This document shows positions 4,735-5,469 of a DNA stretch of 8,037 bases, in pieces. The stretch is from a virus. Its lineage: Duplodnaviria > Heunggongvirae > Uroviricota > Caudoviricetes. The notes under the pieces are model-generated. The model was not told the DNA's origin and did not search any database. It saw nothing but the letters and a program-made list of their open reading frames with translations. Each line of letters begins with the position of its first letter. Position 1 is the stretch's first letter. The translations under genes and the position numbers were made by a program. The stretch is from IMG/VR virus record IMGVR_UViG_2531839237_000019, one strand, 5' to 3'.

Positions 4735-5469
4735 ATGGAGACTGTTTTTGACGCACTGAAAGCGATGGGAAAAGCCACGTCGGTATAGCTGGCTGCGCGA
4801 CTTGATATCAGTCGTGAAGAAGTACTGAACGAGCTGTGGGAACTGAAAAAGGCTGGCTTCGTTGATAAAAGCGTATACACCTGGCGTGTGGCTGATAACA
4901 ACGTTCAGCAGGAACAGCCAGCGCCAGAAGAAACCACCACGGCAACAGAAGCGAAAATCTCAGAGTGCGATTTAACCGCGACGATTGAACAACGCGGACC
5001 ACAAACGGCGGATGAACTGGCTACGCTGTTCGGTACAACATCCCGCAAAGTTGCTTCAACGCTGGCAATGGCAATCAGCAAAGGTCGTCTGATTCGCGTA
5101 AACCAGAACGGTAAAATTCGTTACTGCATACCAGGTGATAATTTACCAGCAGAGCCGAAAGTTGAATCGGTAGCGGAAACCGATGGTAAAGCCTTTCCTC
5201 AGCCAGCCGGTGTTGCGTTACCGGTACAGAAAGATGCAACACAGGAAGATATTAAAACAGAAACTGTGGCGGACATTGTGCAGTCGCTGCCATCGTTTAC
5301 TGCAACGCGAGAAGATGATTTGATTTTGCCATCGCTGCATATGGCAAATCGCGAACTGCGTAGGGCGAAGAATCATGTCCAGAAGTGGGAGCGAGTCTGC
5401 GCCGCGCTGCGGGAGCTGAACAAGCACCGGGATATGGTTGCCGGGATTTGTCGGAAGTCCGGGCAATGA
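4735..5469 (+). pseudogene. Winged-helix protein gene interrupted by an in-frame amber (TAG) codon at codon 18
   Basis: ATG 4735 has a strong SD (GGAGG, 6-nt spacer). The frame reads METVFDALKAMGKATSV-TAG(4786-4788)[34 protein letters not shown] and stays open to TGA 5467-5469. The stop splits a single wHTH motif, and a second wHTH-like segment follows ([31 protein letters not shown]). The 193-aa ORF in the track (4888-5469) starts at an internal GTG. Confidence 0.6.

Follow-up and report, generated by a model that had tools for sequence, protein, structure and literature searches.

The gene considered here has two close points of comparison in Escherichia coli, one in the Rac prophage of K-12 and the other in the PPompW prophages. 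Rac carries ydaW, a member of the DUF1627 family (PF07789, phrog_630) whose product is listed as a predicted E. coli transcription factor with no known function (PMC9308461); when overexpressed, the K-12 gene blocked RcaT, the toxin of retron-Sen2, as did several other prophage genes (bioRxiv 10.1101/2020.06.22.160242). The gene follows the replication genes of Rac in the order ydaU-ydaV-ydaW, and it is a pseudogene in a defective prophage, its C-terminus having been deleted (‘missing C-terminus’). The PPompW prophages come from a study of O145:H28 (Nakamura et al., PMC8112680) and are generally defective; their copies of the gene (O55:H7, O145:H28, O111:H8 and O26:H11; e.g. WP_000450692.1, BCI48946.1) are intact, with a glutamate codon, GAG, at position 18 and an annotated full length of 244 aa. 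A further prophage of relevance is Sp9 of strain Sakai (Asadulghani et al., PMC2669165), whose repressor lacks a peptidase domain and whose P is of the lambda type, and which carries head-gene defects yet is spontaneously excised and packaged. In the literature on DUF1627, ydaW, Sp9 and PPompW we found no mention of the amber codon described below.

Here we describe a DUF1627 gene, in a stretch of 8,037 nucleotides of viral DNA (hereafter the window), that is complete save for one nonsense codon near the N-terminus. Like the K-12 gene it is a pseudogene in a defective prophage; the two share their first 16 residues, and differ in that the K-12 copy has lost its far end while the copy described here, which is that of E. 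coli O157, has kept it. On the evidence set out below, we consider it very probable that this is a conserved lambdoid early gene which a nonsense mutation has effectively inactivated, the mutation being fixed throughout the O157 clade and unsuppressed there.

The genes of the window run in the order DicA-like repressor, Cro/DicC-like gene, YdaT-like gene, O-like initiator, P-like gene, DUF1627, a 54-aa open reading frame (ORF), a fimbrial pseudogene and paa/adfO (Table 1). The gap between P and DUF1627 is 33 nt, and the placement of DUF1627 after O and P corresponds to that of ydaW in Rac, the same gene order being found in Rac and in the PPompW prophages. The P protein of the window recurs in six unrelated prophages, each of which has an intact DUF1627 gene (249–256 aa) about 33 nt after P. 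The stretch from 4600 to 5600 is 99.9% identical to PPompW prophages integrated at ompW, the annotation of PPompW points to the Sakai gene ECs1774, and the features of the window match the published description of Sp9. From these matches, the window likely derives from an ompW-integrated, Sp9-like prophage of which Sp9 of Sakai is the counterpart.

Table 1. Coordinates of the interrupted DUF1627 gene and its neighbours in the window.
Feature	Position	Strand	Basis
YdaT-like gene	2684–3235		
O-like initiator with DnaT domain	3207–4247		
Lambda-P-like replication gene, directly upstream of DUF1627	4240–4701	+	Pfam Phage_lambda_P
Shine-Dalgarno GGGAGG, 6-nt spacer to the start codon	4723–4728	+	Sequence itself
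Whole ancestral DUF1627/YdaW-like gene, 244 codons plus stop, now broken at codon 18	4735–5469	+	Translation, Pfam, PHROGs
N-terminal remnant of 17 codons (METVFDALKAMGKATSV): helix 1 and start of helix 2 of the first winged-helix domain	4735–4785	+	Conservation, AlphaFold2 (helices 4–11, 16–23)
Amber codon TAG, from GAG (Glu18) by a G-to-T transversion at 4786	4786–4788	+	Orthologue comparison
Remainder, probably untranslated: rest of first winged helix, linker, second winged helix (77–131), disordered linker, long C-terminal helix (201–243), TGA	4789–5469	+	AlphaFold2, Foldseek, PGAP span
First canonical in-frame restart codon, GTG (codon 52), without upstream Shine-Dalgarno	4888–4890	+	ORF list, start scan
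54-aa ORF, WP_001505071.1	5466–5630	+	PGAP CDS, phrog_30109 (E = 6e-17)
paa/adfO	6329–7087		

The interruption can be read directly from the DNA. As the initial annotation had noted, a strong Shine-Dalgarno sequence precedes an ATG (4735–4737), 17 sense codons follow, and the frame then meets TAG, beyond which it continues for 226 sense codons (about 227 in the earlier count) to a TGA at 5467–5469. We found no second lesion in this frame anywhere between 4735 and 5469. A random stretch of 226 codons would stay open with a probability of ~2e-5; this figure, together with a Pfam match at E = 7.8e-93 and the near-invariant N-terminus of the family, shows that the frame is not a chance ORF. The Pfam match was obtained with the read-through product, codon 18 being written as glutamine, which scores 308.8 bits against PF07789 (cut-off 28.1) over residues 84–236, and a near-identical intact homologue (P0001) used as the PHROGs query matches phrog_630 over residues 1–242 (E = 2.5e-121).

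The family is large, and its members tell where the ancestral gene began. DUF1627 proteins form 2727 clusters at 90% identity and 176 at 50% identity (search of 1.84 billion representatives); the best 120 of the 2727 clusters are mostly 240–257 aa long, and nearly all of them cover residue 1. In an alignment of 42 diverse full-length representatives, 21–66% identical to the query, the aligned Met1 is the exact start of 35, the other seven being longer by two residues. Conservation within the protein is highest in the N-terminal block M-E-T-V-x-D-A-L-K-A-M-G-K-A, and the residue at column 18 is glutamate in all 23 close homologues and in 36 of the 42 distant ones. In none of the aligned homologues, close or distant, does a stop occupy that column, which always holds glutamate or another sense residue. 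The whole family architecture, that is, a MET(V/I) start, an N-terminal winged helix-turn-helix (wHTH), a linker, a second wHTH and a C-terminal helix, is thus encoded in one frame of the window that is broken only by the TAG.

These comparisons bear on whether the first 17 codons are instead an independent upstream leader ORF, with the real gene starting downstream of 4788. Models of that kind do exist among the gene predictions of RefSeq and other callers (see below), and they are all that speaks for it. Homologues starting downstream of 4788, which the earlier reading had named as the observation that would overturn it, were not what we found: 35 of the 42 distant homologues and nearly all close ones start at Met1, the 17 residues are covered by nearly all of the best 120 clusters and by the 42 distant representatives, and a single intact 735-nt CDS is annotated in O145:H28 (PPompW), O55:H7 (DEC5A) and O111:H8. 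The N-termini of the homologues refute a separate upstream ORF, whose probability we regard as negligible, and the proposal that the ancestral gene was continuous holds.

The position of the stop within the protein was examined on a predicted structure. A first AlphaFold2 model, made from a shallow alignment of sequences 84–93% identical, had a mean pLDDT of 52 and was replaced by one built on the 42 diverse homologues, with a mean pLDDT of 81.5. In this model residues 1–52 form a first winged helix (helices 4–11, 16–23 and 27–39, strands 43–46 and 49–52; pLDDT 94–98) and residues 77–131 a second (pLDDT 94–97), each predicted with the wHTH topology H1-(strand)-H2-H3-strand-strand and the two joined by a low-confidence linker; a disordered stretch follows the second domain and leads to a long C-terminal helix (201–243). 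Residue 18 lies in helix 2 of the first domain, in agreement with the original suggestion that the stop falls inside a wHTH motif, and a 17-residue product would therefore be unable to fold like the native protein.

A Foldseek search with the model returned the tandem winged-helix proteins ScpB, ESCRT-II and SelB as well as regulators of the ArsR, MarR and AspA types (E about 3e-4 to 1e-2). ScpB, the ESCRT-II subunits and the C-terminal domains of SelB resemble the DUF1627 model in their tandem arrangement and in the fold of their domains, and the single-wHTH ArsR, MarR and AspA regulators in the fold of each single domain; global TM-scores to both groups are nevertheless low (about 0.2), and the long C-terminal helix and disordered linker of DUF1627 have no counterpart in either. 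At the sequence level there are weak matches to ArsR, TrmB and AspA, and every HTH match in Pfam or NCBIfam falls below its cut-off, so that no specific HTH family is claimed. Residues 77–131 (window about 4963–5127) give weak profile matches to the Z-alpha and Z-beta domains of ADAR1, to ZBP1 and PKZ, and to the archaeal centromere-binding AspA. Behind the apparent PDB match to ADAR1 (E = 3.8e-6) stand only two weak matches of a generic wHTH kind, one to Z-alpha and one to Z-beta (per-domain E 2.9 and 0.052), and we do not take it as evidence of a Z-DNA-binding domain; judged by such non-significant per-domain values, the likeness to ADAR1, ZBP1, PKZ and AspA appears to be a generic winged-helix resemblance only. 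A reasonable guess is that DUF1627 is an early protein that binds nucleic acid or docks onto other proteins, in a regulatory or counter-defence role.

Orthologues identify the codon that was lost. Over the 735 nt of the gene, the sole difference between the window and either O55:H7 DEC5A or the O145:H28 PPompW gene PPompW_14040 is at 4786, where the window has T and the orthologues G, and the same base is the only difference from PPompW_14040 over the 1001 nt from 4600 to 5600. In O111:H8 strain 8234 a second base of the gene differs besides 4786 and codon 18 is GAG, and K-12 ydaW has GAA, also glutamate. Since the orthologues and the wider family have a sense codon here, the TAG derives from GAG by a G-to-T transversion, and the amber codon is a derived nonsense substitution of Glu18. 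Of the two ancestral codons first envisaged for a single nonsense lesion, GAG or CAG, the alignment thus selects the former.

The TAG allele is neither an error nor private to the window. An 81-mer centred on the TAG occurs exactly in 298 complete-genome records, and the truncated ORF that derives from it is found in 4948 blocks of public assemblies; the identity of the allele across so many complete genomes and thousands of assemblies rules out a sequencing or assembly error at 4786. Every sampled record with the TAG 81-mer is O157, including 493/89 of the sorbitol-fermenting German O157 clone. The corresponding GAG 81-mer is exact in 295 records; among the 60 matches listed none is labelled O157, and those named are O145, O26, O111, O103, O121 and O55:H7 (CB9615, RM12579), with DEC5A carrying GAG as well. 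At each of the 10 O157 loci that were fetched, TAG is the only lesion, and every non-O157 locus that yielded the flanking 30-mer has GAG. The complete stretch 4600–5600 is 100% identical in at least 30 chromosomes, most of those listed being named O157:H7 or O157. The same stretch matches four to seven places in each O157 genome listed, and paralogous copies may therefore be present. The 10 O157 loci vary only in 493/89, where codons 2 and 3 each have a synonymous change (GAG to GAA and ACT to ACC; window 4740 and 4743), and these adjacent changes may be a short conversion patch from a paralogue.

Fixation of the TAG across O157, including the early-branching 493/89, means that the mutation predates the diversification of O157. 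The initial annotation had called it very recent. This stands in so far as no secondary lesion has followed and a single base separates the gene from its O55:H7 and O145:H28 orthologues, but a substitution fixed throughout O157, 493/89 included, is not the event of one isolate. The transversion very probably arose on the O157 branch, once O55:H7 had split off but while sorbitol-fermenting O157:H- and typical O157:H7 were still one line, and the amber allele has since been inherited by the whole clade. Among the genomes sampled, position 4786 is accordingly a clean single-base marker by which O157, both H7 and sorbitol-fermenting H-, can be told apart from O55:H7 and the other serotypes with this prophage.

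An amber codon at the head of an otherwise open gene raises the question of suppression, and the initial annotation had proposed, as the alternative to inactivation, a host with an amber suppressor in which the full-length product is made. The model for this idea is provided by the classical laboratory amber mutants of lambdoid phages, such as lambda Oam29, Pam80 and Sam7, which likewise have a single UAG in an early-region gene; these, however, were selected in the laboratory, are conditional and are grown on supE or supF hosts, whereas the O157 amber codon sits in a natural host clade without supE or supF. None of the 5426 complete E. coli genomes has the supF-type allele of tyrT (CTA anticodon); each gave the one-mismatch match to the wild-type gene that validates the query. 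In a search of the same genomes, the supE-type allele of glnV (CTA) occurs in 155 records, fewer than the 298 that carry TAG; all 60 matches listed have genomes of K-12 size, and the majority are laboratory strains known by name. In the TAG-carrying O157:H7 strain PV15-279 the anticodons of the glnX-glnV operon are CTG, CTG, TTG and TTG, the wild-type state for both glnV and glnX, and no supF-type tRNA-Tyr is present; nor does the window contain a tRNA gene. Amber suppressors are not known from natural isolates of E. coli.

The genome-wide scan addressed the supE and supF loci, and for these two the suppressor explanation is rejected. Broadened to any supE- or supF-type or phage-borne suppressor tRNA, which would insert glutamine, tyrosine or another residue at position 18, it is a logical possibility and is compatible with the fully intact downstream ORF, and in view of the tRNA genes just described we regard it as extremely improbable.

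Without a suppressor, ribosomes might still pass the TAG at some low rate. The stop is followed by C, reportedly the weakest fourth base for UAG and so a comparatively weak termination context, and some read-through by near-cognate tRNAs, of the order of 0.1–1%, is possible. If this yielded functional amounts of protein the gene would be down-tuned rather than dead, a reading in keeping with the retention of the strong Shine-Dalgarno and the lack of further decay. A programmed signal, however, should be conserved among homologues, and this stop is conserved in none, TAG being confined to O157 among the genomes sampled; moreover, the expected level is below about 1%, and in so young a clade a lack of decay is to be expected anyway. 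We think it very unlikely that read-through sustains the gene, and the amber codon gives no pointer to new biology of stop-codon decoding.

The public annotation of O157 genomes presents the interrupted gene differently. RefSeq (PGAP) gives a 226-aa ‘DUF1627 domain-containing protein’ (WP_077744273.1) that begins at CTG 4789, the codon immediately after the TAG, with no pseudogene flag, and other gene callers place the start at GTG 4888 to give a 193-aa protein, which is the form on record in the 4948 assembly blocks. Both starts appear to be artefacts, the callers having settled on the earliest allowable codon of an open frame. Thousands of database entries consequently present the remnant of a pseudogene as a normal protein.

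Such models would be correct in outline if translation restarted after the stop. Possible start codons in this frame are CTG 4789 and other CTGs, GTG 4888 (codon 52) and ATG 5068 (codon 112), and a start at CTG 4789, GTG 4888 or ATG 5068 would give a truncated protein with the second winged helix and the C-terminal helix, either partly functional or dominant-negative towards the paralogues of other prophages. The Pfam DUF1627 domain (84–236) was taken to lie wholly downstream of all three codons, the ORF is intact in all O157 copies, products of this kind are annotated by RefSeq and by other callers, and the four to seven matching places per listed O157 genome allow for paralogues on which a dominant-negative product could act. 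Yet scanning 20 nt upstream of every in-frame ATG, GTG, TTG and CTG after the stop revealed no Shine-Dalgarno sequence, CTG is a very poor initiator in E. coli, and the annotated starts are simply the first codons allowed. Every homologue, furthermore, keeps the first winged helix, with the most conserved block at its N-terminus, and a protein without it is unlikely to work normally. Re-initiation of any consequence is therefore very unlikely.

We are left with loss of the protein as the most probable outcome. When the early right operon is transcribed, ribosomes would load at the strong Shine-Dalgarno, make the 17-residue peptide and be released by RF1; with neither an amber suppressor tRNA nor a good restart site, significant amounts of a full-length or domain-complete protein would not be expected. 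The effect probably extends to the next gene. The ATG of the 54-aa ORF overlaps the TGA of DUF1627 (ATGA, 5466–5469), a 4-nt overlap that is annotated in O157, O55:H7 and O111:H8 alike, and with the TAG upstream the translational coupling of this ORF is probably lost in O157, and its expression with it. The phrog_30109 profile aligns only from residue 14 of the 54-aa ORF, and its true start may be ATG 5505. Rho-dependent polarity past the TAG is a possibility only: the C/G ratio in the untranslated stretch peaks at only about 1.1–1.2 (4895–5050), and no convincing rut site was seen there. A scan of 4000–6400 for promoters and terminators gave counts on a par with those of shuffled sequence and was thus uninformative.

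Beyond the TAG, the DUF1627 ORF shows no damage at all in any O157 copy examined, which is accounted for by the youth of the clade but would also be accounted for by residual selection. The loss itself is ordinary gene decay in a defective prophage, and it probably carries no fitness cost, given that the prophage is defective and that Sp9 of Sakai, its likely counterpart, is still excised and packaged. If Sakai has the TAG like every sampled O157, DUF1627 would be dispensable for excision and packaging, at least beside many other lambdoid prophages. A more elaborate account would have the Glu18 amber codon selected rather than neutral, as a clade-defining inactivation or down-tuning of an early gene with a counter-defence or regulatory role. 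Such a change could have helped to fix PPompW, with its effector and adhesin genes, in the O157 lineage as this emerged; alternatively, a restart product without the first winged helix could interfere with the paralogues of other lambdoid prophages; we give this account only a very small chance of being right.

The TAG is a natural null allele for the study of a very widespread lambdoid early gene. Comparison of O157 (TAG) with O55:H7 or with a GAG revertant, in induction, replication and evasion of defence, would offer an inexpensive way to learn what DUF1627 does. It is in this use, in the marking of the O157 lineage and in the correction of public annotation that the main value of the allele lies.

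The surroundings of the gene are mosaic. The window in its full length is absent from all complete E. coli genomes and phage records, where identity to it reaches 99.0–99.1% at best. Between 4097 and 4356, in the P-like gene, it differs by 19 substitutions from every O157 copy fetched, and the same variant of the P protein is common in non-O157 prophages. At the right end, from 7672 (7672–8037), about 430 nt are missing, after which identity is 86% to PPompW and 99.8% to another prophage of O145, O26 and O103. To judge from these patterns of identity, there looks to have been prophage–prophage recombination around the TAG allele.

Other genes nearby carry lesions of their own. The O-like gene, whole in the window, carries an IS1203/IS629 insertion in O157:H7 PV15-279 and a frameshift in 493/89; these differing lesions show that decay of the replication module set in independently in different O157 strains. 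In the same module of O111:H8 strain 8234, IS1203 adjoins a truncated P gene. The ‘fimbrial protein’ pseudogene (about 5635–6168) has a frameshift and an internal stop, and O157, O55:H7 and O111:H8 all have it annotated in the same position; its lesion, common to all three, is thus older than the amber codon. The paa/adfO gene beyond it encodes an adhesin of the AcfC family (SBP_bac_11 fold) and is cargo between the early region and the hok/rem/rusA/Q region.
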